Shown one piece after another: positions 3,461-24,101 of a DNA stretch of 50,949 bases. The stretch lies in sequence record NZ_CP034927.1; one strand, given 5' to 3'. Position 1 is the stretch's first letter, and each line of letters opens with the position of its first letter. The notes beneath the pieces were generated by a model, which was not told the DNA's origin, searched no databases, and saw nothing but the letters and a program-made list of their open reading frames with translations. Position numbers and translations under genes: made by a program. This DNA comes from a plasmid.

Positions 3461-3538
3461 CCATAATGTTGGCTCGAAGCTCCCCGTCCGACGGCGAGGC
3501 GGCACGACATCGGTATACCTGGGAAGAAGGGCTCTCAG

Positions 3539-3593
3539 ACAGCGCTTACCATCAGCCTGCGCAGCGCGGCGAAGCTGCGGAACCAGGAAGAAC
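3539..3593 (+). pseudogene. putative 5' portion of a vapB-like antitoxin gene interrupted by IS66 (its 3' end is now at 16290..16344)
   Basis: The frame ...TALTISLRSAAKLRNQEE | [15 protein letters not shown] becomes continuous when 3593 is joined to the reverse complement of 16344 across the shared 8-bp GGAAGAAC. The upstream start is not identifiable. Confidence 0.3.
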
Positions 3594-3695
3594 GTACCCC
3601 TTCGGTGAGGGCCGCCTTCCAGCCTGGGGCTGAACCTGTCTTCTGATCTTATCAACGCTCGTAGGAGCGTTGTTAAGAACGGGGCGGTTTGGGAC

Positions 3696-4064
3696 ATGGA
3701 GATCATCAGCGGCGTCGAACGTCGCCGGCAATGGCGGGTGGCGGACAAGCTGCGGATCGTGGCCGAGGCTGAACGTCCCGGCGCGTGCTTCGTAGAGGTA
3801 GCTCGCCGGCATGAGGTGAGCCGGAGCGTACTTTGGGCTTGGCGCAAGCAGGCGCGGCAGGGCGTGCTGGTGGCCGAACCCGTGCCGATGTTCATGCCGG
3901 TGCAGGTGGCAGAGGACCTGCCGGCACCCGCCCCTCGGGCTGAGGCTGCGCCGGCGGCTTCTCCCCGGATCGAGATAGCCTTGCCGGACGGTACGGTGAT
4001 CCGCGTCGACGAGGGGATCAGCGCTGCCGCGCTGCGGCGTGTGATGGCGGCACTGCGCGGATGA
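3696..4064 (+). CDS. tnpA: IS66 TnpA (small HTH protein, orf1)
   Basis: MEIISGVERRRQWRVADKLRIVAEAERPGACFVEVARRHEVSRSVLWAWRK is the typical IS66 orf1. Confidence 0.85.
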   Translation: MEIISGVERRRQWRVADKLRIVAEAERPGACFVEVARRHEVSRSVLWAWRKQARQGVLVAEPVPMFMPVQVAEDLPAPAPRAEAAPAASPRIEIALPDGTVIRVDEGISAAALRRVMAALRG

Positions 4065-4408
4065 TCCCGGTTCCCTCCGGTGTCCGGGTCTGGCTGGCGG
4101 CGGGCCACACCGACATGCGGCGCGGCATGAATGGCTTGGCGCTACAGGTGCAGCAGGCGCTCGGGCGCGATCCCCATGCCGGCGATCTCTACGTTTTTCG
4201 GGGCCGCCGCGGCGACCTGGTAAAAATCGTTTGGCATGACGGGCTCGGCATGTCGCTCTACGCCAAGCGGCTGGAGCGCGGCCGGTTCATCTGGCCGCCG
4301 CCGGCGGATGGCGCGGTGGCGATTTCCGGGTCGCAATTGGCCTACATGCTGGACGGCATCGATTGGCGGAACCCGCAACGGACATGGCGTCCGGAGGTCG
4401 CCGGATAA
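4061..4408 (+). CDS. tnpB: IS66 TnpB (orf2)
   Basis: WLAAGHTDMRRGMNGLALQVQ...LYVFRGRRGDLVKIVWHDGLGMSLYAKRLERGRFIWP is the conserved IS66 Orf2. It overlaps tnpA by ATGA. Confidence 0.85.
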   Translation: MIPVPSGVRVWLAAGHTDMRRGMNGLALQVQQALGRDPHAGDLYVFRGRRGDLVKIVWHDGLGMSLYAKRLERGRFIWPPPADGAVAISGSQLAYMLDGIDWRNPQRTWRPEVAG

Positions 4409-4447
4409 GGCTGGCAGGCGGGCATCGGGTATGATTCAATTTCTGTC

Positions 4448-6037
4448 GTGATACCCGCGCCGGACACCATCCCCGCCGATATCGACGCGCTGCGCACCGC
4501 GCTGGCGGCGGAGCAGTCGGCCCGGCGTGAGGCCGAGGCGCGGGCCTCCGGCGCCGAGGCGATGGTGGCGCATCTCAAGCTGCTGATCGCCCGGCTCAAG
4601 CACGACAAGTACGGCGCCTCCTCCGAGCGCGGCCGCAAGCTGCTCGACCAGTTGGAACTCGAGCTCGGCGAGTTGGTCGCCGCCGCCAGCGAGGACGCCG
4701 CCAAGGTCGAGGGCGCAGCCTACAAGGACGGCAGCACCCGCCGCCCCGACAGTCCGCCCCGCGGCCAGCCGGTGCGGGCCCCCCTGCCGGCTCACCTGCC
4801 ACGCGAGCGGATTGTCCTGCCGGCGCCGACGACCTGTCCCTGCTGCAATGGCAGGCTGTCCAAGCTGGGCGAGGACATCACGGAAACGCTCGAGGTCGAG
4901 CCGATCAGATGGAAGGTCATCCAGACCGTGCGGGAGAGGTTCTCCTGTCGCTCCTGCGAGAGCGTCACCCAGCCGCCGGCACCGTTCCACCCCATCGCCC
5001 GCGGCCGGGCAGGACCGAACCTGCTGGCCATGATCCTGGAGGCCAAGTTCGGCCAGCACCTGCCGCTGAACCGCCAGAGCGAGACCTATGCCTTGCAGGG
5101 CATCGAACTCAGCGTCTCGACCATCGCCGGCTGGGTCGGGGCCTGCACCGCCAACCTGGACCCGCTGGTCACCCTCATCGAGGCCCATGTGCTGGCGGCC
5201 GAGCGGTTGCACGGCGACGATACCACCGTCCCCGTGCTGGCCAAGGGCAAGACCATCACCGGCCGGGTCTGGACCTATGTCCGCGACGACCGGCCCTTTG
5301 GCGGCCGGGCACCGCCGGCGGCGATGTTCCGCTACTCCCGTGACCGGACAGCCGAGCATCCGAACCGGCACTTGGTCGGCTATGCCGGCATCCTGCAGGC
5401 CGACGCCTATGCCGGGTACAACGGGCTCTACGAGGCCGACCGACAACCGGGGCCGGTCACCGAGGCAGCGTGTTGGGCGCATGGCAGGCGCAAGCTGTTC
5501 GAACTGGCCGAGTTGTCGCGGGCGCCGCTCGCCGTCGAGGCGGTGAGCCAGATCGACGCCATCTTTGATGCCGAGCGCACCATCAACAACCTGCCCGCCG
5601 AGGCGCGGCTCGTCCTTCGCCGGCAGCACGTCGCGCCGCTGGTCACCGACTTCGAGACCTGGATGCGCGAGAGCCGCGGCAAGGTGTCCCGGCACGCGCC
5701 GGTCGCCAAGGCCATGGACTACATGCTGGTGCGCTGGGAAGCCTTCACCCGGTTTCTCGGCAATGGCCGGATCTGCCTCACGAATAATGCTGCCGAACGG
5801 GCGCTGCGCGGTATCGCCCTTGGCAGGAAGTCGTGGCTGTTCGCCGGCAGCGATCGCGGCGGCGACCGGGCCGCGGCGATGTACTCGCTGATCTACACCG
5901 CCAAGCTGAACGACGTCGACCCGCGCGCCTGGCTGGCCGATGTCCTCGCCCGCATCGCCGACCACCCTGCCTCGCGCCTGCACGAGCTGCTGCCTTGGAA
6001 CTGGACCCGTGCGAGGGAGGGCAAGGAAGCGGCATGA
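4448..6037 (+). CDS. tnpC: IS66-family transposase TnpC (529 aa)
   Basis: It has an N-terminal coiled-coil/leucine zipper, the CPCCNGRLSKLGED...CRSCE zinc motif and a DDE core (HLVGYAGILQADAYAGY). Confidence 0.9.
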   Translation: MIPAPDTIPADIDALRTALAAEQSARREAEARASGAEAMVAHLKLLIARLKHDKYGASSERGRKLLDQLELELGELVAAASEDAAKVEGAAYKDGSTRRPDSPPRGQPVRAPLPAHLPRERIVLPAPTTCPCCNGRLSKLGEDITETLEVEPIRWKVIQTVRERFSCRSCESVTQPPAPFHPIARGRAGPNLLAMILEAKFGQHLPLNRQSETYALQGIELSVSTIAGWVGACTANLDPLVTLIEAHVLAAERLHGDDTTVPVLAKGKTITGRVWTYVRDDRPFGGRAPPAAMFRYSRDRTAEHPNRHLVGYAGILQADAYAGYNGLYEADRQPGPVTEAACWAHGRRKLFELAELSRAPLAVEAVSQIDAIFDAERTINNLPAEARLVLRRQHVAPLVTDFETWMRESRGKVSRHAPVAKAMDYMLVRWEAFTRFLGNGRICLTNNAAERALRGIALGRKSWLFAGSDRGGDRAAAMYSLIYTAKLNDVDPRAWLADVLARIADHPASRLHELLPWNWTRAREGKEAA

Positions 6038-6633
6038 CCAGCTCCAACATCGCCCGGCTGAAGATCACCCTCGACGACGTCAAGCCCGCGGTGACGCGCC
6101 GCGTCGAGGTGCCGCTGACCATCCGGCTCGATCGCCTGCATTTGGTGCTGCAGGCCGCCATGGGCTGGACCAACAGCCACCTTTACGAGATCCGCGCCCG
6201 CGGCGTGGGCTGGGGCGTGCCCGACCCAGACTGGGGAGACGGCCCGCTCGACGCCCGCAAGACGCGGCTCCTCGACGTCATCGAGGACACCGGCGCGAAG
6301 ACGCTGAGGTACCTCTACGACTTCGGTGACGGCTGGGAACACACGGTCAAGGTCGAGCGCATCGCCGATGCTATCCCCGGCCTGCTCTACCCGTTCCTGA
6401 TCAATGCTACAGGCCGTTGCCCACCCGAGGACGTTGGCGGACCCCCAGGTTATGCCGAGTTCCTCGACGCGATCGCCGACCCGAAGCACGAGAGCCACGC
6501 CGAGATGGTTCGCTGGGTCGGCGTGCCTTTCGATCCCGCCGGCATCGACTTCGAAGAGCACGCAAAAGCCGTCGACACCCTCGCCAAGGCGTGGTCACGC
6601 AAGCCAGCCACCCGGCGCAATTCCGCAAGCTGA
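6034..6633 (+). CDS. pRiA4b ORF-3-like family protein carried inside the IS66 element
   Basis: LKITLDDVKPAVTRRVEVP...LHLVLQAAMGWTNSHLYEI...YLYDFGDGWEH recalls the PRiA4_ORF3 family. Its start ATG overlaps the tnpC stop (ATGA). Confidence 0.65.
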   Translation: MTSSNIARLKITLDDVKPAVTRRVEVPLTIRLDRLHLVLQAAMGWTNSHLYEIRARGVGWGVPDPDWGDGPLDARKTRLLDVIEDTGAKTLRYLYDFGDGWEHTVKVERIADAIPGLLYPFLINATGRCPPEDVGGPPGYAEFLDAIADPKHESHAEMVRWVGVPFDPAGIDFEEHAKAVDTLAKAWSRKPATRRNSAS

Positions 6634-6743
6634 TCGCGGCCCTCCCAGGATCAGCGCCCCAGAGGAGCTCAGCCCCGACCGATAGCGGTGAACGCCGCCA
6701 ATCCGCGGTCCTCGGCTACCCGCGGCCTTGGCCGTATGGGTAC

Positions 6744-6834
6744 CTTCCTGCGCAGTGTCGCGGAGGCGGTGCTGCAGATGCTGATGGAGGCCGACGTGGA
6801 AGGCCAGATCGGTGCCGGGCGGCACGAGCGCACC
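6744..6834 (+). pseudogene. internal fragment of an IS256-family transposase gene
   Basis: FLRSVAEAVLQMLMEADVEGQIGAGRHERTGG resembles the conserved IS256 N-terminal region. The matching N-terminus (MTEERLPLADLLAKAGDGN) sits at 19495..19558 on the other strand. Confidence 0.55.
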
Positions 6835-7692
6835 GGCGGGCACCGTCAACTTGCCGGCCTCGAGGCGACGAGGCTGATTGATCGACAACGGACTCCAGGG
6901 CGATCAAGCCCGTGCGGCGACCCCGCTGACCTCGGACCACACCTCGAACGCGCGCGCCCTTGCGGCACGATAGTCGCAGGCGGTGACGTGGTCCCGGCGA
7001 AGATGAAAGAGGTTGTTGATCCCGTCGTGGGCGGAAAGGAAGCGCTGCGCTTGGCCAGCAGACTTGAACCGCTTCATCCCTCGTTCTCGTCGTCGTGTCG
7101 GCTGATGCGAGTTCTCAGCACGGTTGTTCAGCCCCTTGTGCTGGCGGTGCTCGACGGAAGGCATCACCTCCTTCTTCGCGGCGCCGTAGCTTGCCAGCTT
7201 GTCGGTGATCATGACCCGTGGTGGCCGCATCTGCCGCTTCAGCAGCTTCCTGAGTAGCCGCTTGGCAGCTTGCTTATCTCGTCGGCTCTGCACCAGCACG
7301 TCGAGTACCATCCCGGCCTGATCGACGGCGCGCCAGAGCCAGTGCGTCACACCGTTGATCTTGAGGACGACCTCATCCAGCTGCCACTTGTCACCGGTGC
7401 GGGGCAGCCGGCAGCGGATCTGATTGGCGAAAGCCTGACCGAACTTGCGGCCCCATTGCCGCAGTGTTTCGTGGCTAACCACGATGCCGCGGAAGGCCAG
7501 CATCTCTTCCACCATCCGCAAGCTGAGTGGGAAGCGGAAGTAAAGCCACACCGCCTGGCTGATGATCTCGCCCGGAAAGCGATACCCGACGAAGCTGGGG
7601 CAGGCGGCGGAGGCGGTCATCCTACCCCACTACCGGTGGTAGGCAGCTCGGGCAAGCTTGCAGCCGGCCAACTTGACGATACCGGGCACACC
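6835..7692 (-). mobile_element. IS6-family insertion sequence (about 860 bp)
   Basis: A single transposase ORF is flanked by imperfect terminal IRs (GGCGGGCACCGTCAACTTGCCGGCC at the left versus the reverse complement of the right end, GGTGTGCCCGGTATCGTCAAGTTGGCCGGC). The boundaries are approximate, within a few bp. Confidence 0.65.
6904..7620 (-). CDS. IS6-family (IS26/IS6100-like) DDE transposase, 238 aa
   Basis: FPGEIISQAVWLYFRFPLSLRMVEEMLAFRGIVVSHETLRQW...DEVVLKINGVTHWLWRAVD...MITDKLASYGAA...NNRAENSHQPTRRRE aligns with the IS6100/IS26 transposase motifs. Confidence 0.85.
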   Translation of the reverse strand: MTASAACPSFVGYRFPGEIISQAVWLYFRFPLSLRMVEEMLAFRGIVVSHETLRQWGRKFGQAFANQIRCRLPRTGDKWQLDEVVLKINGVTHWLWRAVDQAGMVLDVLVQSRRDKQAAKRLLRKLLKRQMRPPRVMITDKLASYGAAKKEVMPSVEHRQHKGLNNRAENSHQPTRRRERGMKRFKSAGQAQRFLSAHDGINNLFHLRRDHVTACDYRAARARAFEVWSEVSGVAARA

Positions 7693-9029
7693 GAGGTCCA
7701 ATCAATCTCGGCCGAGTTGCCGCACGTGATGCGCCCCGCCTGGTTCAACGGCAGGAACTTGCGGGTCTGGCCCAGGTCAGCCTCGGCCAGCTTGTCCATC
7801 TGGTACTGCGCAATCCACAGCCCGATCCGGGCCGCTTGGCATGCGAAGTCGTCGATCTCGATCCCGTAGAACGCGTCGAGCCGGACCACCTCGTGTGGCA
7901 ACTCTCCGAGATGACGAAACGCGAGTCGCTCAAGTTCGCGCATGGCCTTATAGGCCAGGATCAGGAAGTTGCCCGAGCCACAGGCCGGATCAAACACCCG
8001 CACGGCCGCCAGCCGATTCAGAAAGACCCGTAGCTTGGGCTTGTTGCTCTTCGCCTGCTCTAACTCAGCGCTGAGGTCGTCCAGCAGGATCGGCCGCAGC
8101 ACCTTCATGATGTTGGCCGCCGACGTGTAGTGCATCCCGAGTTCGCCGCGCTTATTCGGGTCGACCACGGCCTGCAGCATCGACCCGAAGATATCTGGGT
8201 TGATCAGCCGCCAGTCGAGCCGGGCGCAATCAAGCAGGTGCCGCCGGCATCGCCCGTCGAGTAGTGGCACTGGCAACGGATCGCGAAAGAGATCGCCGTT
8301 GACGTAAGGCAATCGCGACCATCCCCGGACCGGCCGCGCCTTCGCCTTCTCCGGAGCGAGATCCATGTGGGCAAATGCCCCCGCAAGAAAGTCTTGCAGG
8401 TCGCCACCGTCGGCCCTGGTCGATCGCTCCACGGCCGTCTGGAAGGCGTCTTTCTCGAAGATGCCAACATCGTCGGAAAACAGGCAGAACATAACGCGCG
8501 CCATGAACACATTGAGTGCATGGCGGTCCACTTCGCCCCTCCATCCCGGGTTTGCGTCGCGTACCGCGTCGAACAGGCGCGATAGATGCTTGGTGGCGCG
8601 GATGTCGGCCAGCCGTTCCGGGTCCGGCACGTGGCGCTCGTGGCCGCCCAACGGGAAGAGGATGTCGGCTTCATAGGCGAGGGCGTCCAGACTGAGCCGC
8701 TGCTCATCGCCGACCTTCGTGTCGCAGATCGCGATCGCGTCCCCGTCGTAAGCGATGACGATGCGGGTGCGCCTAGCTTTCGGCTTGGCCTCTTCCTCCG
8801 CCCGCATCGCCTCCATCGAGGGGACCGTCGCGCCCTTGTCCACAAGCGCGAAGCGAAGCATCCGCGTCCATGCGAACGATCCGCTGCCGGCCGCCTCGGC
8901 CCGGAGCTTCGTGATCGTCGCGCGCGGCGCACCCACGGCATCCATCAATTCGAGCCCGAAGCTTGCTCGGTCCGGCCGTCGCCCCACCAACGCCTCGACG
9001 TTGTCATAGATCTCGGTCGGACTCAGCAT
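7693..9029 (-). pseudogene. N-terminal about 445 codons of an MmeI-like type IIG/IIL restriction-modification enzyme (or related gamma-class N6-adenine MTase), truncated by the IS6 element
   Basis: It has the AdoMet motif I (VFDPACGSGNFL) and the characteristic upstream FMARVMFCLFSDDVGIF helix. The reading frame runs into the IS6 terminal repeat just after ...CGNSAEIDWTS, before any NPPY/F motif IV. The last 22 codons are IS-derived. Confidence 0.6.
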
Positions 9030-9453
9030 GCAGTCGTCCTACCACCTTGTGAAATTGTGCAAATCATCAATGGCCGCATTTCAGTACGGTGTGAGATTGC
9101 GAAGGTGCCGGATGGGTTCTTCTTCGGAAGAGCAGGATGTTGACCGGAGAGCCACTCGGGGCCGGCATCTCGCGAACGGCGACGCCGGGATCGGCATGAA
9201 AATTCAGCTCGTCGCGGTTTTGCACCACATACAGAGAGTTCTGAAGCATCGCATCAGTCCTGGCGCGTGGGCGCGCTTCGGTAGTCATGGTCGCAATTGC
9301 AGAAAGTTGAGCTGCGGCGCGGTCTGTCTACCACCGCGGTCACGCGCGTTGCTGGCCAACTGCTCACATCCGCTACGGAGCATCTGAAGTAAGCAGATGA
9401 TTGGCTGAGGTGATGCGTAGAGTCGATGATGAGAGGGAGCATGCGGGCGGCGC

Positions 9454-10131
9454 CTACCTGATCGCACTTCGTGCGAGCACGGCCCTGACCTGGGTAGCGC
9501 CCCACCTTCCGCCGCGTGGGGTGCGTATGCCGCGCGCGTCCAGCACTGCTGCGATGCCGCGGAGACTGGTAACACCGCTAACCTGCGCCTGAAGAATGAT
9601 GGGGACCACATTTTCTGCGAACCGCCGAGCTTCAGCAGCCGTCGCGGCGGCCCCTGCCCGACCGGCCTCATTGAGGTTCGTAGGATTACCCAGCCGGACA
9701 CCCTGTCGCTTGTGCGCGGCCAGCGCTGCCCGCGTGCGCTCGGAGATCATGCGCCGTTCCTTCTCGGCCAGCGCGGCGTAGATGTGCAGCATGAATGGGT
9801 CCACGTCAGCGCCGAGTTCGGCGACGAGGAACGGTACCCGCTGCACCATCAGCCCTGCAATAAAATGAACGTCGCGTGACAGCCGATCGAGCTTGGCAGC
9901 CAGCATAACGCTGCGTTGCCGCTTTGCGGCTGCCAGCGCCAGAACGAGCTGTGGCCGGCGATCAAGCGCGTCGCTCCCCTTTCCCGTTTCCACCTCGGTG
10001 AACGCCTCGACGATCTCAAGGCCGTTCTGGACGGCGAAAGTTGTGCACCGCTCTCGCTGGGCATTCAGTCCTAGCCCGGATCGACCCTGGCGTTCGGTGG
10101 ACACGCGATAGTAGGCGACGACGGGCTGCAT
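9454..10131 (-). CDS. serine recombinase (resolvase/invertase family), 225 aa
   Basis: The N-terminal catalytic domain [19 protein letters not shown]...DRLSRD has a serine nucleophile. The C-terminus is an HTH. Confidence 0.8.
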
Positions 10132-10170
10132 ACCCGTTCATTTGTGGGCATTCGGAGCTTTGTAGCAAGA

Positions 10171-10194
10171 GGCCAAACGACCGTTTGGCCTTTT
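10171..10194 (+). other. perfect 9-bp inverted repeat GGCCAAACG-AC-CGTTTGGCC followed by TTTT (terminator-like hairpin or recombinase site)
   Basis: Read directly in the sequence, between the serine recombinase start and the DUF2442 gene end. Confidence 0.3.
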
Positions 10195-10230
10195 GACGCT
10201 ATCAAGCCAATGTTCCTGGTCCGAATAGCC

Positions 10231-10632
10231 TCATGCGGATTTCCGTGGCCGCCCTCCCCTGGCGCCGTTGGCTCGCGCCGCCGCTGCTTTTGCAGGCGAC
10301 GTAGCCCGCCCGGCCTGACGGGCCATGAAGGCCCTGGTGCCGAACAGTCCCGCCAGGAGACCGAGGACCGAGAGGTCGGCATCGAGCGCCTCCCAGTGCA
10401 GGCCCGTGCCGGTTCCCAGCACCTCGACCTCGGCCAGCTGCTCGTCGGTTGCCCTTTCCAGTCCCTGCGCCAGGCGTGCCGGGAAGGCAAAGGTGCAGCC
10501 GTTGCTCAGTTCCACGATCACGCGCCCGGCCTGGCGGTCATAGCGTGCTGCCGTGGCCCTGGGCTCCGTCCGGCGCGCGGCCGCACCCCGGGCCAGCGCC
10601 TCGTCGATCTGCGTGTCGGTCAGCTCAGCCAT
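10231..10632 (-). CDS. DUF2442-like protein
   Basis: MAELTDTQIDEALARG...GRVIVELSNGCTFAFPARLAQGLERATDEQLAEVEVLGTGTGLHWEALDADLSVLGLL. The start overlaps the upstream DUF4160 stop (ATGGCTGA). Confidence 0.6.
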   Translation of the reverse strand: MAELTDTQIDEALARGAAARRTEPRATAARYDRQAGRVIVELSNGCTFAFPARLAQGLERATDEQLAEVEVLGTGTGLHWEALDADLSVLGLLAGLFGTRAFMARQAGRATSPAKAAAARANGARGGRPRKSA

Positions 10633-10885
10633 GGATCTCCCTCCAGCGCGCCAGCAGGACGGCCTGTTGCCCGGTGATGGCATGCATGGCGCGGCGAACT
10701 TCGCCGCGGCTCATGCCCTCAGCCCAGACCAGCTCCGGAAGACCACCCCTGCCGATCAGGTTGATCTTGGCCTCACCGTCTCCGAAGACATGGACATGAG
10801 CAGGATCGTGATCGTTGGCATAGATGACCACGCGCAGGCCGTGGACACGTAGCACAGTCACCCTGAGTACGTCATAACCCATCAT
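10625..10885 (-). CDS. DUF4160-like protein
   Basis: 86 aa, with VIYANDHDPAHVHVFGDGEAKINL matching the DUF4160 PPHxHV motif region. It is paired and translationally coupled with DUF2442. Confidence 0.6.
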   Translation of the reverse strand: MMGYDVLRVTVLRVHGLRVVIYANDHDPAHVHVFGDGEAKINLIGRGGLPELVWAEGMSRGEVRRAMHAITGQQAVLLARWREIHG

Positions 10886-10960
10886 GATGGGTTAATCAAG
10901 CTTGTTGAGCCAGTCCACCGCCCGTGGATCGTCTGGCGCACCTCTGCCTTTACGCCCTCG

Positions 10961-13228
10961 GTGATCAGACAATCCTGGTGGAGACATGAGCCCGATGCGC
11001 AGGCATCATCGTTCGCCTATCTGAGGACCATGCCCGGCATCCCGGCCCCCTCCCCTGCCCCGGCGGATCGCGGCCTGCCCACCGAGGCGCTGGCCGGGCT
11101 GGTGGAACGCGTCACCTACCACAGCGCCGAGAACGGCTTCTGCGTGCTGCGGGTCAAGGCGCGCGGCCACCGCGACCCGGTCACCGTGGTGGGCCACGCC
11201 GCCTCGATCTCGGCCGGCGAATGGGTGCAGATGTCGGGCGCCTGGGTCAACGACCGCGCCCACGGCCTGCAGTTCAGGGCAGGCTTCCTCAAGGCCACCC
11301 AACCCACGACGCGCGAGGGCATCGAGAAGTACCTGGGCTCGGGCATGATCCGCGGCATCGGTCCGGTCTACGCGGCCAGGCTGGTGGCGGCCTTCGGCGA
11401 GGCGGTGTTCGAGCTGATCGAGGCCGAGCCCGCCCGGCTGCGCGAGGTCACCGGCATCGGCCCCAGGCGTGCGGCGCGCATCGTCGCCGGCTGGGCCGGG
11501 CAGAAGGTGATCCGCGAGATCATGCTGTTCCTGCATGCCAACGGGGTGGGCACCTCGCGCGCGGTACGGATCTACAAGACCTACGGAGCGCGGGCCGTGG
11601 AGGTGATCACGGAGAACCCCTACCGCCTGGCGCGCGACATCCGCGGCATCGGCTTCCGCACCGCCGACACCGTGGCGGGCAGGCTCGGCATCGAGCCCAC
11701 GGCGATGATCCGGGTCCGCGCCGGGATCTCCTTCGCGCTCGCCGAGGCCACCGGTGAGGGGCACTGCGGCCTGCCGGTGGGCGAGCTGACCGCGCTCGCG
11801 GGCAAGCTGCTGGAGGTGAGTCCCGAGCTGATCGAGGCGGCCCTGGCTCTCGAACTCGACGCCGGCGAGGTGGTGACCGACACGCTGGAGGGCGGGCCTT
11901 GTGTGTTCCTGGCCGGGCTGTACCGCGCCGAGCAAGAGATCGCCGGGCGGCTGCGGCGGCTGGCCGCGGGCCGGCAGCCCTGGCCCGCCATCGATGCCGA
12001 CCGGGCGATCCCCTGGGTGGAGGAGCGGACCGGGCTGACGCTTGCGGCCAGCCAGCGCGAGGCGCTGCGGCTGGCGCTCTCCTCCAAGGTGCTGGTGATC
12101 ACCGGCGGCCCGGGTGTGGGCAAGACCACGCTGGTGAACGCCATCCTGCGGGTGATCCGGGCCAGGGGGGTGGAGGTGGCGCTCTGCGCCCCGACGGGAC
12201 GGGCGGCCAGGCGCCTGAGCGAGAGCACGGGGCTGGAGGCGCGGACCATCCACCGGCTGCTGGAGAGCGACCCGAAGACCGGTGGGTTCAAGCGCGACGA
12301 GACGAACCCCTTGGCCTGCCAGCTGCTGGTGGCCGACGAGACCTCGATGGTGGACGTGCCGCTGATGCGCGCCCTGCTGCGGGCGCTGCCCGACGAGGCG
12401 GCGCTGCTGCTGGTGGGCGACGTGGACCAGCTCCCCTCGGTGGGCCCCGGGCAGGTGCTGGCCGACGTCATCGGCTCGGGCGTCCTGCCGGTGGTGCGGC
12501 TGACCGAGGTGTTCCGCCAGGCGGCCGAGAGCCGGATCGTGACCAGTGCCCACCGCATCAACCGCGGTCGGCTGCCGGAGCTCGAGGCGACGGCGGGCAG
12601 CGATTTCTTCTTCGTCGGGGCGGAGGAGCCGGAGGAGGGTGTGCGCAAGCTGCTCACCCTGGTGGGCGAGCGCATCCCGGCGCGCTTCGGGCTGGATCCG
12701 ATCCGCGACGTGCAGGTGCTCTGCCCGATGAACCGGGGCGGGCTGGGGGCCAGGGCGCTGAACGCCGCGCTGCAGGCGGCGCTGAACCCGCCCGGGGACC
12801 TCAGGGTCGAGCGCTTCGGCTGGACCTTCGGCCCCGGCGACAAGGTCATGCAGGTGGCCAACAGCTACGACCGGGAGGTGTTCAACGGCGACCTCGGCGT
12901 GATCACAGGGGTGGACCTGGAGGAGGGCGAGCTCACGGTGGTCTTCGACGGGCGGGAGGTCGCCTACGGCTTCGGGGAGCTGGACGAGCTGGTGCTGGCC
13001 TACGCCACCACCATCCACAAGGCCCAGGGCTCGGAGTACCCGGCGGTGGTGATCCCGCTCAGCACGCAGCACTACGCCATGCTGGCGCGCAACCTGCTCT
13101 ACACCGGCGTGACGCGGGGCCGGAAGCTGGTGGTGCTGCTCGGGCAGCGCCGGGCCCTGGCGATCGCCGTGCGCAACCAGGGCATGCGCCGGCGCTGGTC
13201 GAAGCTCCGGGAGTGGCTGGCTCTGTAG
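10961..13228 (+). CDS. recD2: RecD2-like SF1B ATP-dependent DNA helicase
   Basis: It has a Walker A (ITGGPGVGKTT), DExx (LLVADETSMVD), motif VGDVDQLPSVGPG, a C-terminal YATTIHKAQGSEY, and N-terminal helix-hairpin-helix-like repeats (GIGPVYAARL, GIGPRRAARI). The start could be an internal ATG (about 11033). Confidence 0.8.
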   Translation: MIRQSWWRHEPDAQASSFAYLRTMPGIPAPSPAPADRGLPTEALAGLVERVTYHSAENGFCVLRVKARGHRDPVTVVGHAASISAGEWVQMSGAWVNDRAHGLQFRAGFLKATQPTTREGIEKYLGSGMIRGIGPVYAARLVAAFGEAVFELIEAEPARLREVTGIGPRRAARIVAGWAGQKVIREIMLFLHANGVGTSRAVRIYKTYGARAVEVITENPYRLARDIRGIGFRTADTVAGRLGIEPTAMIRVRAGISFALAEATGEGHCGLPVGELTALAGKLLEVSPELIEAALALELDAGEVVTDTLEGGPCVFLAGLYRAEQEIAGRLRRLAAGRQPWPAIDADRAIPWVEERTGLTLAASQREALRLALSSKVLVITGGPGVGKTTLVNAILRVIRARGVEVALCAPTGRAARRLSESTGLEARTIHRLLESDPKTGGFKRDETNPLACQLLVADETSMVDVPLMRALLRALPDEAALLLVGDVDQLPSVGPGQVLADVIGSGVLPVVRLTEVFRQAAESRIVTSAHRINRGRLPELEATAGSDFFFVGAEEPEEGVRKLLTLVGERIPARFGLDPIRDVQVLCPMNRGGLGARALNAALQAALNPPGDLRVERFGWTFGPGDKVMQVANSYDREVFNGDLGVITGVDLEEGELTVVFDGREVAYGFGELDELVLAYATTIHKAQGSEYPAVVIPLSTQHYAMLARNLLYTGVTRGRKLVVLLGQRRALAIAVRNQGMRRRWSKLREWLAL

Positions 13229-13299
13229 CTGGCATCCGCCAGCGCCTCTGCGTCTCCAGCACAATTTCTGAGGCTGCTTCATAGATAGCCGAACCTATT

Positions 13300-13435
13300 C
13301 AGACATCCACCGCATAAACGTACGTATGATCGGCAATACGTACGTTTGTAGGATAGTACGTTTGTGCGAGCGACATTGCGTATGGTAGACATGATGTACG
13401 AACGTATGATCGCTCGGACATGGAGACGTATGCGA
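13300..13435. repeat. cluster of ACGTA(C/T)G-containing direct repeats (12-mer TACGTATGATCG at least twice here and once more at 14239) upstream of parA; candidate partition site
   Basis: Exact 11-12-mer recurrence was read in the sequence at 13321-13332, 13402-13412 and 14239-14250. Confidence 0.4.
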
Positions 13436-14083
13436 ATGACGGTCTTAACATTGGCTGGGTCAAAGGGAGGCTGCGGCAAGAGCACATTGGGTCGGGCTAT
13501 GTCTGCTCTCCTAGCGCGTGAAGGAGCATCTTTCGCGGTGGTGGATGCGGACCCCAACAAGGCGCTTTCTCGATGGCTTACTGCCATTTACGAGGGACCG
13601 GAGATTACTCACTGCGCCGAGGCAAACGAGGACCGATTGGCACACTTAATTGCTGAGTTGCGCGACCAGCACGATTTAGTGCTCGTGGACACCGCCGGGT
13701 TTGAGAACCTTGGATCGTCGGTAGCAATTGCCTCGGCTGATGCGGTGCTCATCCCCTGCAAGGCTTCGGAAGCAGACCTCTACGAAGCCAGGACCACTGC
13801 CACAAAGGTCAAGTCACTTTCTGTTACTACTCGGCGGACAATCCCGGCTTGGGTAATTCTCAATTCCGTCCGAACTACGGCTGTAGCTGCTCATGCCGCC
13901 GAACAGATTAAGGAGGCAGGGCTAGAACGGCTCAGTGCTTCCCTTGGCCACCGAGCAGATTATGAGGCGGTAAGCCACACGGGGAAAATGCCGACTAGCG
14001 GTGCCGCCTTCCGTGAGGTCACGGATCTCATCGCAGAACTTCGAGCCAAAGATGCCATGCCCGCTGTCCGGGTGACCGCCTGA
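13436..14083 (+). CDS. parA: ParA/Soj-family partition ATPase (deviant Walker A KGGCGKST)
   Basis: MTVLTLAGSKGGCGKSTLGRAMSALLAREGASFAVVDADPNKALSRW. The ORF in the track starts earlier at 13364, but that stretch contains the repeats. The stop overlaps the next gene (TGATG). Confidence 0.8.
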   Translation: MTVLTLAGSKGGCGKSTLGRAMSALLAREGASFAVVDADPNKALSRWLTAIYEGPEITHCAEANEDRLAHLIAELRDQHDLVLVDTAGFENLGSSVAIASADAVLIPCKASEADLYEARTTATKVKSLSVTTRRTIPAWVILNSVRTTAVAAHAAEQIKEAGLERLSASLGHRADYEAVSHTGKMPTSGAAFREVTDLIAELRAKDAMPAVRVTA

Positions 14084-14583
14084 TGGCCAAGCCCACATTT
14101 AAGAAGCTGCCCGAGGCAGAGCAAAGGATGCCTCCGACAGAGTTAGTGGCTGCAGTACGAGCAGAAGACCCGAGCGTTCCTCCAGCGCGTGTAGAAGTAG
14201 AGCACGACACTCAGACGGCAATACGTCATTTCAGCCATACGTATGATCGACATGGCGGACAGACAATAGGTCAATCAGACGTCCAGCCATCCACGTCAAT
14301 CTCGGGCACTCTTGCACCAAAGCGAGACGCTCCATCAATAAATCAGCATGTCGACAATACGAAAAGACGTCCTGACGGCAATACGTCTGAACGATCAGAT
14401 GTTCTGACCGCTCTGACTGTACGGTTGCGTCAGAGTACTCTCGATGCAGTGCTGGCATCCTCCGAAAAACGGGGAGTTACGCTCAAGCAGGTTCTGACAC
14501 ACGCCTTGCGGGATGCCGGGATAAAGGTGGCCGCAGCCGATCTCGAAGATCGAACCCCCCGACGTAAGGTTCGTGGCGGGTGA
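14083..14583 (+). CDS. ParG-like ribbon-helix-helix partition protein (centromere-binding partner of the small ParA)
   Basis: The C-terminal LTVRLRQSTLDAVLASSEKRGVTLKQVLTHALRDAGI is a ribbon-helix-helix-like fold after a long, likely disordered N-terminal region. It is translationally coupled to parA. The 5' coordinate is uncertain. Confidence 0.5.
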   Translation: MAKPTFKKLPEAEQRMPPTELVAAVRAEDPSVPPARVEVEHDTQTAIRHFSHTYDRHGGQTIGQSDVQPSTSISGTLAPKRDAPSINQHVDNTKRRPDGNTSERSDVLTALTVRLRQSTLDAVLASSEKRGVTLKQVLTHALRDAGIKVAAADLEDRTPRRKVRGG

Positions 14584-14602
14584 CCAGCATGACACATGGG
14601 GG

Positions 14603-14868
14603 TGGACTCTTGCGAGCAATGTCCACTGTGGACTCTTGCGAGCAAAAGAGTAACCGAATCGGGCTCGTCTGGCTGAAGTGGAAACATTGCCAGCCGTCCT
14701 TCAGCTCACAAGGCAGCCGAGGACTCTTGCGAGTGGTCTGTGGACTCTTGCGATACGCCTAAACGTTGAATCAATGACTTCTGCCGGTTATCCCGTGGAC
14801 TCTTGCGAGCAAGCTAATAGTTTAGAATCTCTAATAACCTCAAATAGCTTCGCTCGCAGGAGTCCACA
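14603..14868. repeat. iteron array: about 6 copies of TGGACTCTTGCGAGCAA (one inverted, variant GACTCCTGCGAG), with a 7th copy at 15165..15179
   Basis: Copies are at 14603, 14629, 14720, 14741, 14796, 14852 (reverse complement) and 15165. An AT-rich stretch lies at about 14815-14850. The array is directly upstream of repA. Confidence 0.7.
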
Positions 14869-14961
14869 GGCGACAGATCCAGTTGCCATGGCATAAGGGG
14901 CTGAAGTCTGGGGAGATAGCCGGTGGGGACGGTGCATCGTCTGATCGAGACCCAGGGCAAG

Positions 14962-15843
14962 ATGGCAGCCCTGGCAACCGACATCGACCGGCGCGTTGTG
15001 GAAGCCGCTTCGTCATACATGGCCGACGAGGATTCCAACGTTGGCTTCATCTACTCTGGCTGGACCCAAGCAGCGCTCCCGCACAAACGTCTCCCCGACG
15101 ATGCCATTTGGAAGATCAGTTCTGAGCACGTAACCCTTCTGGTCGAACCAGGTCGGCGAACTGTGGACTCTTGCGAGGAAGCAGAGTGGGTAGGGGTGCC
15201 TTACGGGAGTCGCGCCCGTCTAATTTTACTCTTTCTTCAATCCGAAGCACTTCGGACTGGAGGGCGGGAAATCGAGCTTGGACGCAGCCTCCGCGCGTGG
15301 TTATCGCGTCTCGGCATTCCAATCGGTGGTAAGTCTTTTAAGGACGTTCGGGAACAGGCGGAACGGATCTCACGCTGCAGACTAACGTTCCACATTCGGA
15401 CCGCTGGTCGGGCTGGTTTGGTCAACCAAAACATCGTGGATACAGCGATGTTCGTTGGAAGCGACGACACGTCTCAGGGATCACTTTTCACCGATACCGT
15501 TCGCCTCTCAGAGAGCTTTTTTGAGCAACTCCAGAAGCATCCTGTTCCGATCGAGGAAGCAGCAATCAAGGCTCTTTCCAACAATAGCATGGCATTGGAT
15601 ATCTACTGCTGGCTAACTTACCGTCTACATGTCCTGCAGAGTCCAAAGCCGATTTCCTGGAAAGCGCTACAAGGACAGTTTGGAGTTGGCTATAAAGGTC
15701 TCCACCACTTCAAGCCGCGGTTTCTAGAAAACCTTGGTCTTGCATGTGCAGTCTATCCAAGGGCAGAATTAGAAGTGGATGAACGCGGATTGACACTGAA
15801 ACCGTCGAAATCACCAGTCATGCCTCGTCTGATTAAAGCGTAA
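14962..15843 (+). CDS. repA: plasmid replication initiator RepA (RPA-type, iteron-binding)
   Basis: About 290 aa downstream of the iterons. IYSGWTQAALPH...GVPYGSRARLILLFLQSEAL...LDIYCWLTYRLH resembles alphaproteobacterial plasmid RepA (Replication initiator protein A family). An alternative GTG start is at 14923. The region has lower GC than its surroundings. Confidence 0.65.
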   Translation: MAALATDIDRRVVEAASSYMADEDSNVGFIYSGWTQAALPHKRLPDDAIWKISSEHVTLLVEPGRRTVDSCEEAEWVGVPYGSRARLILLFLQSEALRTGGREIELGRSLRAWLSRLGIPIGGKSFKDVREQAERISRCRLTFHIRTAGRAGLVNQNIVDTAMFVGSDDTSQGSLFTDTVRLSESFFEQLQKHPVPIEEAAIKALSNNSMALDIYCWLTYRLHVLQSPKPISWKALQGQFGVGYKGLHHFKPRFLENLGLACAVYPRAELEVDERGLTLKPSKSPVMPRLIKA

Positions 15844-15991
15844 CCGGTACAACCCATTCAAAAGCACTTGAACGGCCAGAGAGGCAAGTGAGGCTGCTGG
15901 GCCTCGTCAATTGGTATGAGTGATATTTGTTGCTATTATGAAACATTCGTCTATCTGAGGTGGGATGTACCATCTTAGATAGACATCCAGT

Positions 15992-16293
15992 CTAACCCAT
16001 TGCTCGCGCCGGAATGGCCGGGACGATATCGGTCCTCGGGAAGTCATTGCCTTCGAAGAGCAGGGGCAGGTTCCAGCACTTGGCCAGGGCATAGGAAGCG
16101 CAGTCGCCAAGGTTGAGCGCGGCCGGGTGACGCCCCTTGCCATACGCCGGAACGCTTCCCGGGCGGTCTCCGCCTGCTCCCGGTCCTGTGCCACCACATG
16201 CATGCCGGCCCCGGCGATGATGTGCAGGAAGGCATCCGCCTCCGGTTCCCGCCGCAGGATGGCGATCAGCACCGAGCTGTCCACGGCAATCAC
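15992..16293 (-). pseudogene. vapC: vapC-like PIN-domain toxin, apparently frameshifted
   Basis: The PIN N-terminus (GTG) [22 protein letters not shown]...REAFRR is in one frame. The conserved C-terminus [40 protein letters not shown] is in the -1 frame. The switch occurs near TTCCGGCGTATGGCAAGG. Confidence 0.5.
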
Positions 16294-16344
16294 ACGGGCA
16301 GGCCGTCCTCGTCGTACAGATCCGCCTCGGTCAGCGGTTCTTCC
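16290..16344 (-). pseudogene. vapB: 3' end of a vapB-like antitoxin gene (…[17 protein letters not shown]), cut by IS66 copy 2
   Basis: The C-terminal DLYDExGLP motif is typical of VapB antitoxins. The GTGTGA stop/start overlaps vapC. The upstream part is at 35xx on the far side of IS66 copy 1. Confidence 0.45.
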
Positions 16345-16454
16345 GTACCCATACGGCCAAGGCCGCGGGTAGCCGAGGACCGCGGATTGGCGGCGTTCAC
16401 CGCTATCGGTCGGGGCTGAGCTCCTCTGGGGCGCTGATCCTGGGAGGGCCGCGA

Positions 16455-17054
16455 TCAGCTTGCGGAATTGCGCCGGGTGGCTGGCTTGCGTGACCACGCC
16501 TTGGCGAGGGTGTCGACGGCTTTTGCGTGCTCTTCGAAGTCGATGCCGGCGGGATCGAAAGGCACGCCGACCCAGCGAACCATCTCGGCGTGGCTCTCGT
16601 GCTTCGGGTCGGCGATCGCGTCGAGGAACTCGGCATAACCTGGGGGTCCGCCAACGTCCTCGGGTGGGCAACGGCCTGTAGCATTGATCAGGAACGGGTA
16701 GAGCAGGCCGGGGATAGCATCGGCGATGCGCTCGACCTTGACCGTGTGTTCCCAGCCGTCACCGAAGTCGTAGAGGTACCTCAGCGTCTTCGCGCCGGTG
16801 TCCTCGATGACGTCGAGGAGCCGCGTCTTGCGGGCGTCGAGCGGGCCGTCTCCCCAGTCTGGGTCGGGCACGCCCCAGCCCACGCCGCGGGCGCGGATCT
16901 CGTAAAGGTGGCTGTTGGTCCAGCCCATGGCGGCCTGCAGCACCAAATGCAGGCGATCGAGCCGGATGGTCAGCGGCACCTCGACGCGGCGCGTCACCGC
17001 GGGCTTGACGTCGTCGAGGGTGATCTTCAGCCGGGCGATGTTGGAGCTGGTCAT
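16455..17054 (-). CDS. pRiA4b ORF-3-like family protein (IS66 copy 2)
   Basis: The protein is identical to the product of 6034..6633. Confidence 0.65.
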   Translation of the reverse strand: MTSSNIARLKITLDDVKPAVTRRVEVPLTIRLDRLHLVLQAAMGWTNSHLYEIRARGVGWGVPDPDWGDGPLDARKTRLLDVIEDTGAKTLRYLYDFGDGWEHTVKVERIADAIPGLLYPFLINATGRCPPEDVGGPPGYAEFLDAIADPKHESHAEMVRWVGVPFDPAGIDFEEHAKAVDTLAKAWSRKPATRRNSAS

Positions 17055-18640
17055 GCCGCTTCCTTGCCCTCCCTCGCACGGGTCCAGTTCCAAGGCAGCA
17101 GCTCGTGCAGGCGCGAGGCAGGGTGGTCGGCGATGCGGGCGAGGACATCGGCCAGCCAGGCGCGCGGGTCGACGTCGTTCAGCTTGGCGGTGTAGATCAG
17201 CGAGTACATCGCCGCGGCCCGGTCGCCGCCGCGATCGCTGCCGGCGAACAGCCACGACTTCCTGCCAAGGGCGATACCGCGCAGCGCCCGTTCGGCAGCA
17301 TTATTCGTGAGGCAGATCCGGCCATTGCCGAGAAACCGGGTGAAGGCTTCCCAGCGCACCAGCATGTAGTCCATGGCCTTGGCGACCGGCGCGTGCCGGG
17401 ACACCTTGCCGCGGCTCTCGCGCATCCAGGTCTCGAAGTCGGTGACCAGCGGCGCGACGTGCTGCCGGCGAAGGACGAGCCGCGCCTCGGCGGGCAGGTT
17501 GTTGATGGTGCGCTCGGCATCAAAGATGGCGTCGATCTGGCTCACCGCCTCGACGGCGAGCGGCGCCCGCGACAACTCGGCCAGTTCGAACAGCTTGCGC
17601 CTGCCATGCGCCCAACACGCTGCCTCGGTGACCGGCCCCGGTTGTCGGTCGGCCTCGTAGAGCCCGTTGTACCCGGCATAGGCGTCGGCCTGCAGGATGC
17701 CGGCATAGCCGACCAAGTGCCGGTTCGGATGCTCGGCTGTCCGGTCACGGGAGTAGCGGAACATCGCCGCCGGCGGTGCCCGGCCGCCAAAGGGCCGGTC
17801 GTCGCGGACATAGGTCCAGACCCGGCCGGTGATGGTCTTGCCCTTGGCCAGCACGGGGACGGTGGTATCGTCGCCGTGCAACCGCTCGGCCGCCAGCACA
17901 TGGGCCTCGATGAGGGTGACCAGCGGGTCCAGGTTGGCGGTGCAGGCCCCGACCCAGCCGGCGATGGTCGAGACGCTGAGTTCGATGCCCTGCAAGGCAT
18001 AGGTCTCGCTCTGGCGGTTCAGCGGCAGGTGCTGGCCGAACTTGGCCTCCAGGATCATGGCCAGCAGGTTCGGTCCTGCCCGGCCGCGGGCGATGGGGTG
18101 GAACGGTGCCGGCGGCTGGGTGACGCTCTCGCAGGAGCGACAGGAGAACCTCTCCCGCACGGTCTGGATGACCTTCCATCTGATCGGCTCGACCTCGAGC
18201 GTTTCCGTGATGTCCTCGCCCAGCTTGGACAGCCTGCCATTGCAGCAGGGACAGGTCGTCGGCGCCGGCAGGACAATCCGCTCGCGTGGCAGGTGAGCCG
18301 GCAGGGGGGCCCGCACCGGCTGGCCGCGGGGCGGACTGTCGGGGCGGCGGGTGCTGCCGTCCTTGTAGGCTGCGCCCTCGACCTTGGCGGCGTCCTCGCT
18401 GGCGGCGGCGACCAACTCGCCGAGCTCGAGTTCCAACTGGTCGAGCAGCTTGCGGCCGCGCTCGGAGGAGGCGCCGTACTTGTCGTGCTTGAGCCGGGCG
18501 ATCAGCAGCTTGAGATGCGCCACCATCGCCTCGGCGCCGGAGGCCCGCGCCTCGGCCTCACGCCGGGCCGACTGCTCCGCCGCCAGCGCGGTGCGCAGCG
18601 CGTCGATATCGGCGGGGATGGTGTCCGGCGCGGGTATCAC
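17051..18640 (-). CDS. tnpC: IS66-family transposase TnpC (copy 2)
   Basis: The protein is identical to the product of 4448..6037. Confidence 0.9.
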   Translation of the reverse strand: MIPAPDTIPADIDALRTALAAEQSARREAEARASGAEAMVAHLKLLIARLKHDKYGASSERGRKLLDQLELELGELVAAASEDAAKVEGAAYKDGSTRRPDSPPRGQPVRAPLPAHLPRERIVLPAPTTCPCCNGRLSKLGEDITETLEVEPIRWKVIQTVRERFSCRSCESVTQPPAPFHPIARGRAGPNLLAMILEAKFGQHLPLNRQSETYALQGIELSVSTIAGWVGACTANLDPLVTLIEAHVLAAERLHGDDTTVPVLAKGKTITGRVWTYVRDDRPFGGRAPPAAMFRYSRDRTAEHPNRHLVGYAGILQADAYAGYNGLYEADRQPGPVTEAACWAHGRRKLFELAELSRAPLAVEAVSQIDAIFDAERTINNLPAEARLVLRRQHVAPLVTDFETWMRESRGKVSRHAPVAKAMDYMLVRWEAFTRFLGNGRICLTNNAAERALRGIALGRKSWLFAGSDRGGDRAAAMYSLIYTAKLNDVDPRAWLADVLARIADHPASRLHELLPWNWTRAREGKEAA

Positions 18641-18679
18641 GACAGAAATTGAATCATACCCGATGCCCGCCTGCCAGCC

Positions 18680-19027
18680 TTATCCGGCGACCTCCGGACG
18701 CCATGTCCGTTGCGGGTTCCGCCAATCGATGCCGTCCAGCATGTAGGCCAATTGCGACCCGGAAATCGCCACCGCGCCATCCGCCGGCGGCGGCCAGATG
18801 AACCGGCCGCGCTCCAGCCGCTTGGCGTAGAGCGACATGCCGAGCCCGTCATGCCAAACGATTTTTACCAGGTCGCCGCGGCGGCCCCGAAAAACGTAGA
18901 GATCGCCGGCATGGGGATCGCGCCCGAGCGCCTGCTGCACCTGTAGCGCCAAGCCATTCATGCCGCGCCGCATGTCGGTGTGGCCCGCCGCCAGCCAGAC
19001 CCGGACACCGGAGGGAACCGGGATCAT
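18680..19027 (-). CDS. tnpB: IS66 TnpB (copy 2)
   Basis: The protein is identical to the product of 4061..4408. Confidence 0.85.
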   Translation of the reverse strand: MIPVPSGVRVWLAAGHTDMRRGMNGLALQVQQALGRDPHAGDLYVFRGRRGDLVKIVWHDGLGMSLYAKRLERGRFIWPPPADGAVAISGSQLAYMLDGIDWRNPQRTWRPEVAG

Positions 19028-19392
19028 CCGCGCAGTGCCGCCATCACACGCCGCAGCGCGGCAGCGCTGATCCCCTCGTCGACGCGGATCACCGTACCGT
19101 CCGGCAAGGCTATCTCGATCCGGGGAGAAGCCGCCGGCGCAGCCTCAGCCCGAGGGGCGGGTGCCGGCAGGTCCTCTGCCACCTGCACCGGCATGAACAT
19201 CGGCACGGGTTCGGCCACCAGCACGCCCTGCCGCGCCTGCTTGCGCCAAGCCCAAAGTACGCTCCGGCTCACCTCATGCCGGCGAGCTACCTCTACGAAG
19301 CACGCGCCGGGACGTTCAGCCTCGGCCACGATCCGCAGCTTGTCCGCCACCCGCCATTGCCGGCGACGTTCGACGCCGCTGATGATCTCCAT
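19024..19392 (-). CDS. tnpA: IS66 TnpA (copy 2)
   Basis: The protein is identical to the product of 3696..4064. Confidence 0.85.
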   Translation of the reverse strand: MEIISGVERRRQWRVADKLRIVAEAERPGACFVEVARRHEVSRSVLWAWRKQARQGVLVAEPVPMFMPVQVAEDLPAPAPRAEAAPAASPRIEIALPDGTVIRVDEGISAAALRRVMAALRG

Positions 19393-19494
19393 GTCCCAAA
19401 CCGCCCCGTTCTTAACAACGCTCCTACGAGCGTTGATAAGATCAGAAGACAGGTTCAGCCCCAGGCTGGAAGGCGGCCCTCACCGAAGGGGTAC

Positions 19495-19558
19495 GCAGGA
19501 AGTTACCATCTCCTGCTTTCGCCAGCAGGTCCGCCAGTGGCAATCTCTCCTCGGTCAT
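19495..19558 (-). pseudogene. 5' end (first about 21 codons) of an IS256-family transposase gene, separated from its continuation at 6744
   Basis: MTEERLPLADLLAKAGDGNFL then continues in frame as RSVAEAVLQMLMEADVEGQIGAGRHER at 6744 once the shared 8-mer GCAGGAAG/CTTCCTGC is overlapped. Confidence 0.55.
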
Positions 19559-19814
19559 CGGGTCCTCGGCCGGTCAGGGGTGGGAGCGTCGCAACTCCAC
19601 GCTAGCCGCCAGGTCCGATGGCCACCCAAGCCCTACATCCCGGCCAACGCCGGATTTTCTACCACCTCCGCGGCGTTACCGACGGCAGAGATCACACCAT
19701 CTCGCGCTACCAAGACCTGCCGCGGCCCGAAAGATGGCAGAACTGAGCTCTCCGAGCCCTTCCGCGCACACGTCTCGTAAGCAACAGGATGCGCCCTTGC
19801 GGATCAACTTGTAT

Positions 19815-19834
19815 GCACTACAATTATGTAGTGC
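19815..19834. promoter_or_regulatory. perfect 8-bp inverted repeat GCACTACA-ATTA-TGTAGTGC upstream of the RHH antitoxin gene; candidate operator
   Basis: Read directly in the sequence, about 24 bp upstream of the ATG at 19858. Confidence 0.4.
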
Positions 19835-19857
19835 GTGAAGAGCTACGGAGGTTCATC

Positions 19858-20464: not shown

Positions 20465-20554
20465 CCCGTTCATCCCCTCAGGCTTCGGGGCGGATGGGTC
20501 GGAGCCTTCCGTGTCCCGCGTGGCCTGCACCGGGTTGCACCGGAAGCTAGCTAT

Positions 20555-23831: not shown

Positions 23832-23905
23832 GTATAAACTTGCTGATTTGAAATAAGAAAACGCTATATCTATAGGTGTTTTCAGTCGGATTGAAGCACT
23901 TATAC

Positions 23906-24096: not shown

Positions 24097-24101
24097 AGCG
24101 C

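Follow-up and report, generated by a model that had tools for sequence, protein, structure and literature searches.

How did two oppositely oriented copies of one insertion sequence (IS) on a plasmid come to carry halves of each other's target-site duplications? This question is raised by a 50,949-bp stretch of record NZ_CP034927.1 (referred to in its whole length as the window), which has 67% G+C and consists of plasmid-type DNA of the Roseomonas mucosa group. A repeat search of the window revealed a long inverted repeat at 3593-6743 / 16345-19495, whose arms of 3151 nt are 100% complementary and lie 9601 nt apart. The arms are two copies of an IS66-family element, for which reading of the boundaries together with a scripted check gave a true size of 3150 bp. 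The 3151st base of the repeat is present because the C at the end of the flank of one copy and the G at the start of the flank of the other are complementary by chance. Copy 2 is the exact reverse complement of copy 1 (100% identity). The evidence described below indicates that the 9.6 kb between the two copies has been inverted. The copies and the 8-bp sequences beside them are as follows; L002 (NZ_CP044118.1), L005 (CP025059.1), L006 and L007 (CP034906.1) are relatives of the window from R. mucosa.

3594-6743, + strand: IS66-family element, copy 1, 3150 bp
16345-19494, - strand: IS66-family element, copy 2, 3150 bp, reverse complement of copy 1
3586-3593, + strand: target-site copy A, GGAAGAAC, outer left flank of copy 1; single-copy and uninterrupted in L002
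6744-6751, + strand: reverse complement of target-site copy B, CTTCCTGC, inner flank of copy 1
16337-16344, + strand: reverse complement of target-site copy A, GTTCTTCC, inner flank of copy 2
19495-19502, + strand: target-site copy B, GCAGGAAG, outer right flank of copy 2; single-copy and uninterrupted in L002, L005, L006 and L007

A preliminary description of this DNA, made from the letters alone, had claimed that the duplications of the two copies are swapped and that this is the footprint of a 9.6-kb inversion. Comparison of the 8-bp flanks bears this out. There is no match within either copy, and the flanks match crosswise as reverse complements, GGAAGAAC with GTTCTTCC and CTTCCTGC with GCAGGAAG. 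The chance probability of two specified 8-mer matches is 4^-16, or ~2e-10. When 6744..16344 was inverted in silico, direct 8-bp duplications were obtained, copy 1 then being flanked on either side by GGAAGAAC and copy 2 by GCAGGAAG.

The strongest evidence for the inversion comes from the comparison with related plasmids, which the preliminary description had suggested. The feature in question is:

6744-16344: inverted segment, 9601 bp, in opposite orientation to both flanks compared with L002, L005, L006 and L007, and to the left-flank side only compared with L010 (CP025194.1)

The interior of the segment was found at ~98% identity in several R. mucosa plasmids or contigs. Local BLAST showed that the order in L002, L005, L006 and L007 is the reverse complement of the right flank, the interior and then the reverse complement of the left flank, the aligned blocks corresponding to window positions 19494-20417 or 19494-20483 (99.9-100%), 6739-7688 and 9784-16344; a 122-bp piece of the left flank (3472-3593) aligned in L002 only. 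In these four relatives both 8-bp sites are single-copy, free of the IS and arranged in the order predicted by un-inverting the window. The context of site A in L002, likewise single-copy, reads GGGAGAAC. In L010 the side of site A is also IS-free, the L010 stretch being limited at 10904 and informative for the left-flank side only. As the arrangement of the window cannot regenerate an empty site, the polarity of the change is clear. Judged from sequence comparison, the un-inverted, IS-free order is the ancestral one and the order of the window was derived from it by inversion, so that the swapped duplications and the relatives lead to the same answer.

Further database searches were performed for other carriers of the two arrangements. 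In PLSDB, neither the IS nor the interior nor the first 25 kb as query brought up a record with the window arrangement, and the best backbone matches (98.4%) are IS-free at both sites. An exact-protein look-up with RepA returned the L002-type arrangement only, and the GTDB representative genomes contained 0 exact matches to the 31-nt left end of the IS. The same kind of look-up with the full-length recombinase of the segment gave one match, contig L015 (Logan SRR5932748), a short-read contig of 9661 bp. L015 is identical to window 6714-16374 and comprises the interior plus 30 bp of the right end of the IS on each side. Both inner junctions are thereby independently confirmed, though not the orientation of the segment between them.

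The preliminary description had also named two genes, a vapB-like antitoxin and an IS256 transposase, as being split across the two IS copies. The pieces are:

3467-3593, + strand: antitoxin remnant, upstream piece (...ISLRSAAKLRNQEE); homology to the intact 117-aa antitoxin starts ~20 codons before the join
16296-16344, - strand: 3' end of the antitoxin, last 15 codons and stop, parted from the rest by the inversion
19495-19558, - strand: IS256-family transposase remnant comprising the start codon and the initial ~19-21 codons (MTEERLPLADLLAKAGDGN...)
6744-6838, + strand: IS256-family transposase remnant, codons ~20-51, cut downstream by an IS6 element

Re-inversion in silico, with removal of each IS and one duplicate, gave two unbroken frames. 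In the restored antitoxin frame ...ISLRSAAKLRNQEE is joined to a 15-residue C-terminal tail, and in the restored IS256 frame MTEERLPLADLLAKAGDGN is joined to FLRSVAEAVLQMLMEADVEGQIGAGRHERTGG..., the whole N-terminal stretch being MTEERLPLADLLAKAGDGNFLRSVAEAVLQMLMEADVEGQIGAGRHERTGG.... Both frames are supported by intact homologues. The 51-aa IS256 N-terminus spans the join unbroken in 80 plasmid records (tblastn against plasmids), and several of the 15 matches shown lie under annotated IS256-family transposases, one of them, in Roseomonas sp. OT10, at 92%. For the antitoxin, DNA and protein are colinear across the join with the 3' end of intact genes for a 117-aa antitoxin of helix-turn-helix (HTH) type in L003 (R. 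gilardii plasmid 3) and L004 (R. mucosa GlSt084 p2), where these genes precede an intact vapC, and also with L002. Neither the 51-aa IS256 stub nor the 39-aa antitoxin stub had a match in NCBIfam or Pfam.

Thus the claim of two split frames holds as far as the rejoining is concerned, but both genes were already dead remnants when they were split. The "vapB" consists of the last ~35 codons of a 5'-truncated antitoxin of HTH type. In the window and in L002 only these ~35 3'-terminal codons are kept, the homology to L003 and L004 running from ...AISLRSAAKL, and compared with the intact pairs of L003 and L004 the first ~80 codons are absent. The neighbouring vapC remnant shows, against the same two plasmids, an internal deletion of ~100 bp (split BLAST match and protein comparison), the flanks of which overlap by 19 bp when aligned with BLAST. 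The IS256 transposase is a stub of ~51 codons abutting an IS6-family element. The vapC/antitoxin module had decayed before the arrival of the IS, neither of the split genes was functional before the event and no working gene was disrupted. As they struck genes that had already lost their function, the IS insertions and the inversion were probably neutral.

The element that forms the repeat carries four open reading frames (ORFs), which in copy 1 are:

3696-4064, + strand: tnpA (HTH_Tnp_1; PF01527, E=2.4e-11)
4061-4408, + strand: tnpB (IS66 Orf2-like; PF05717, E=5.4e-38), overlapping tnpA by 4 bp
4448-6037, + strand: tnpC, DDE transposase (PF03050, E=9.4e-93)
6034-6633, + strand: fourth ORF, pRiA4b ORF-3 family (PF07929, E=3e-57), overlapping the tnpC stop by 4 bp

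Assignment to the IS66 family is supported by the type of TnpC, by tnpA and tnpB upstream on the same strand, by the imperfect ends and by the 8-bp target duplication. The tnpC product also matches zf-IS66, LZ_Tnp_IS66 and DDE_Tnp_IS66_C in Pfam and scores 462.9 bits on NCBIfam model NF033517 (cut-off 180). The imperfect terminal inverted repeats, GTACCCCTTCGGTGAGGGCCGCC and GTACCCATACGGCCAAGGCCGCG, match at 17 of 23 bases, and the boundaries of the element are pinned to the single base by the empty sites in L002. A fourth ORF of the IS66 element is annotated at the matching position in L001. The same IS was found at 100% identity in NZ_CP024583.1 (Roseomonas sp. FDAARGOS_362 plasmid) and NZ_CP034926.1 (R. 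mucosa) and at 99.9% in AP031464.1; it is flanked by direct 8-bp duplications, GGTCGCCA in NZ_CP024583.1 and CATAAGGC in AP031464.1. An 82%-identical IS66 relative in L002 has its own direct 8-bp duplication, CTTCGAGC. With TnpC as query, an exact-protein look-up brought up complete plasmids in which the element is single and has direct duplications, as well as fragmentary contigs from metagenomes. Target duplications of 8 bp have been reported for IS66-family elements (PMC3281130), and the plain direct duplications elsewhere indicate that simple insertion is the usual outcome for this element. In its overlapping tnpA, tnpB and tnpC genes, its DDE TnpC with zinc finger and leucine zipper, its imperfect ends and its 8-bp duplication it resembles ISPpa5a and ISPpa7 of Paracoccus (PMC3281130). 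Its greater length, 3150 bp compared with ~2.7-2.8 kb, is due to the extra, translationally coupled pRiA4b-ORF3-like gene.

By which route did the segment become inverted? We consider two insertions followed by homologous recombination the most likely one and would put its probability at roughly 0.6. The ancestral backbone had the order left flank, antitoxin and vapC remnants, RepA, ParA, RecD2, recombinase, MmeI fragment, IS6, IS256 stub and PemK-side right flank. Today one copy of the IS66 element interrupts the antitoxin remnant (site A, GGAAGAAC) and the second interrupts the IS256 stub (site B, GCAGGAAG); with the 9.6 kb inverted, each copy has one A and one B flank, the inner ones reverse-complemented. 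On the favoured route the element would have inserted independently and in opposite orientations at A and B, each insertion making a normal direct 8-bp duplication. Host homologous recombination of the RecA type between the 3150-bp perfect inverted repeats would then have flipped the 9.6 kb. In recombination-proficient bacteria, crossing-over between perfect inverted repeats of kilobase length is efficient. The same recombination could reverse the inversion, and a culture may hold both isomers. Several points weigh against this route. Neither an un-inverted record with two copies nor a record with a single copy at A or B was found in PLSDB or among the assemblies from the exact-protein look-ups, the short-read assemblies among them being incapable of showing a two-copy state, and the order of the two steps is therefore inferred and not observed. 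Moreover, one-step intramolecular replicative transposition would leave the very same footprint, and the orientation of the segment in the window depends on an unaudited assembly.

The preliminary description had attributed the flip to recombination between the repeats, which fits the footprint but is one of two routes that lead to it. By the other, a single IS66 copy at A or B would attack the other site in trans, and Shapiro-type replication would make the second copy and invert the 9.6 kb at the same time. With rc for reverse complement, this geometry yields A-[IS]-rc(B)...rc(A)-[IS']-B, just as found in the window. For IS26, such a pattern was documented by He et al. (2015, mBio, PMC4471558), who argued that it is explained more parsimoniously in this way than by insertion plus recombination; the end product and the 8-bp repeat pattern of in-trans replicative inversion by IS26 are identical to those of the window, and in that study ISSwi1 was split into inverted pieces beside two oppositely oriented IS copies. 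One event is likewise more parsimonious than three in the present case. The 100% identity of the copies also fits, as does the failure of the searches described above to bring up an un-inverted intermediate with both of them, although a recent two-step history would be just as likely to leave identical copies and no intermediates where few members of the lineage have been sampled. As to a relative with the donor copy only, all relatives found are empty at both sites, and the only other IS-bearing member is L015, a short-read contig ending in the IS. IS26 belongs to the IS6 family and transposes via cointegrates, and most of its copies are without direct duplications. The IS of the window differs in this respect, since all its other copies with both flanks readable in complete records carry a plain direct duplication. 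The literature searched gives no account of how the IS66 family transposes; to our knowledge, neither a replicative pathway nor one via cointegrates is established for it, in contrast to IS26. We thus regard inversion by the element itself in one step as a tentative alternative and favour two insertions followed by recombination, because no replicative pathway is known for the family, the duplications elsewhere are plain and recombination is expected between such repeats.

The remaining explanations concern the orientation or the segment itself. The orientation may have been resolved arbitrarily in the assembly, or may represent the majority state of a mixed population. The sequences of the four IS/flank junctions are the same in either orientation, and short reads cannot fix it, as L015, which ends 30 bp into the IS on both sides, illustrates. 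On the other hand, the window passes through both 3150-bp copies, which normally needs reads longer than the repeat. We consider this explanation improbable, and if the un-inverted order were the true one there would still be two inverted copies with direct duplications and the rest of the analysis would be unchanged. Two IS copies with outward-facing left ends bracketing a segment might also suggest a 15.9-kb composite transposon (IS/segment/IS) that was inserted as a unit, and a 225-aa gene of the resolvase/invertase type inside the segment might suggest a Hin/Gin-like switch operated by this serine recombinase. However, the outer flanks GGAAGAAC and GCAGGAAG form no direct repeat, and in the relatives the interior is contiguous with both flanks and IS-free, which shows that the segment was already part of the backbone and was not brought in. 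The inversion has its breakpoints inside the IS copies and not at short recombinase sites, the recombinase gene is at least 2.7 kb from either boundary, and in the L002-type relatives shown (L002, L005-L009 and L012-L014), which have the same backbone, the recombinase is truncated, with 133 aa. Both the composite-transposon and the invertase readings are ruled out by the flank sequences and the empty sites in relatives, and the likelihood left to them is negligible.

Returning to two insertions with subsequent recombination, the window has the features of classical inversions mediated by homologous recombination between IS copies. In these the copies are identical and inverted, neither has a direct duplication of its own, the duplications match crosswise, re-inversion restores the interrupted genes and the relatives are un-inverted, as is the case here. 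Nothing of substance differs; in the present case the element is an IS66 member with a fourth ORF, the replicon is a Roseomonas plasmid and the interrupted genes were already remnants. On this Roseomonas plasmid, which is rich in IS elements, the finding offers a clear example of an IS-mediated rearrangement of a kind that has been known for a long time. That the segment may still flip, as the preliminary description proposed, is plausible. Because recombination takes place inside the IS, the four IS/flank junctions are unchanged by orientation and only the linkage through the 3150-bp element differs. Polymerase chain reaction across the junctions, which had been suggested for detecting both orientations, and short reads are thus uninformative, and only reads or amplicons spanning the whole IS would show co-existing isomers.

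The copies of the element are identical within and between strains, which points to a currently active IS66-family element reshuffling the plasmids of R. mucosa, a skin commensal and opportunist. The two possible isomers of a segment between 3.15-kb perfect inverted repeats affect assembly, plasmid comparison and typing. The structure also represents a potential 15.9-kb composite transposon with a rep/par module. If the inversion were carried out by the IS66 element itself in one step, it would provide sequence-level evidence for a Shapiro-type replicative pathway like that of IS26 and Tn3 and would bear on the transposition mechanism of the IS66 family.

Analysis with Pfam showed that the gene content given for the segment in the preliminary description was right, and a vapC remnant was found in addition. 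The genes are:

~6839-7683: IS6 element (IS6 transposase)
7617-9029, - strand: MmeI N-half fragment
9454-10131, - strand: serine recombinase, 225 aa
inside the inverted segment: DUF2442 and DUF4160 genes
10961-13228, + strand: RecD2-like helicase
13364-14083, + strand: ParA
14923-15843, + strand: RepA (RepA_C)
15907-16299, - strand: vapC (PIN) remnant; PIN match of residues 4-31 only, below the cut-off

In the L002-type relatives ~2.1 kb are missing, corresponding to window ~7684-9783. The missing stretch covers the greater share of the MmeI-type fragment, with N-terminal, helicase-spacer and half-methyltransferase domains, along with a portion of the serine recombinase gene. Its loss begins precisely where the IS6-family element (~6839-7683) ends, which is what would be expected of an adjacent deletion mediated by IS6. 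In this region the window therefore keeps the older state, with a recombinase of 225 aa compared with 133 aa in the relatives.

The pRiA4b ORF-3 gene of copy 2 is located at 16455-17054 (- strand). The gene is also present in the 82%- and 77%-identical IS relatives of Roseomonas. On plasmid H18 of Sinorhizobium alkalisoli it adjoins an IS66 tnpC, and it was matched in other Sinorhizobium plasmids as well. It appears to belong, as an accessory gene, to the regular make-up of an IS66 subgroup.

The 82-83% identical element of L002 is a different IS66-family element with the same four-ORF layout. Its duplication CTTCGAGC, which is GCTCGAAG on the window strand, is found at L002 8524-8531 and 11614-11621. 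The insertion site corresponds to window 3472-3479, is empty in the window and lies 114 bp from site A; the two elements have opposite orientations. In four more R. mucosa plasmids an 82-83% identical IS66 element adjoins the same backbone. Two distinct IS66 elements have thus been found in the same ~120-bp antitoxin remnant in different lineages, for which a local hotspot or chance are possible explanations.

Several metagenome contigs carry the IS with other flanks. In L030 (ENA ERZ27316681) the left flank of the same IS, CCTGACGG, does not match the right one, GGAAAAAC. In L027 (ERZ27316695, from another ENA sample than L030) GGAAAAAC stands at the left end of the IS. Either a further rearrangement mediated by the IS or a chimera assembled through the repeat would account for this. 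The IS is moreover cut 8 bp short at its end in L027 and L029, and on that side there is a transposase gene with a Tnp_DNA_bind domain. As the flanks of L027, L030 and L031 (GGAAAAAC, GGTTCTTC) resemble site A, homology of these places to the antitoxin site and a target preference of the IS were considered. The translations proved to be unrelated, and the sample is too small to support a preference.

Outside the inverted segment, a low-G+C island (40.8% compared with 67% overall) with small ORFs was observed at window 23001-24000. It includes a 112-aa predicted membrane protein (23493-23831) and is located between an IS5-family transposase gene (21372-22817) and a fragment of an IS4/IS5-type transposase with DUF4096. 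Direct repeats of 131 nt with 83% identity (21438-21568 and 23971-24101) bracket the island. Further downstream, inverted repeats of 517 nt, 86% complementary (31814-32330 / 35806-36322), bracket a KaiC-like double-ATPase gene (32864-34381) and a histidine-kinase gene (34317-35642). Adjoining these repeats is a near-palindrome at 32377-32726, whose 173-nt arms are 80% complementary and 4 nt apart. Finally, window 26164-31271 contains a cluster of HlyD, RbbA-type ATP-binding cassette (ABC) ATPase and ABC-2 permease genes that is 94% identical to one on NZ_CP024583.1. Since NZ_CP024583.1 also bears an identical IS copy, the cluster fits a pool of plasmid modules shared among these strains.

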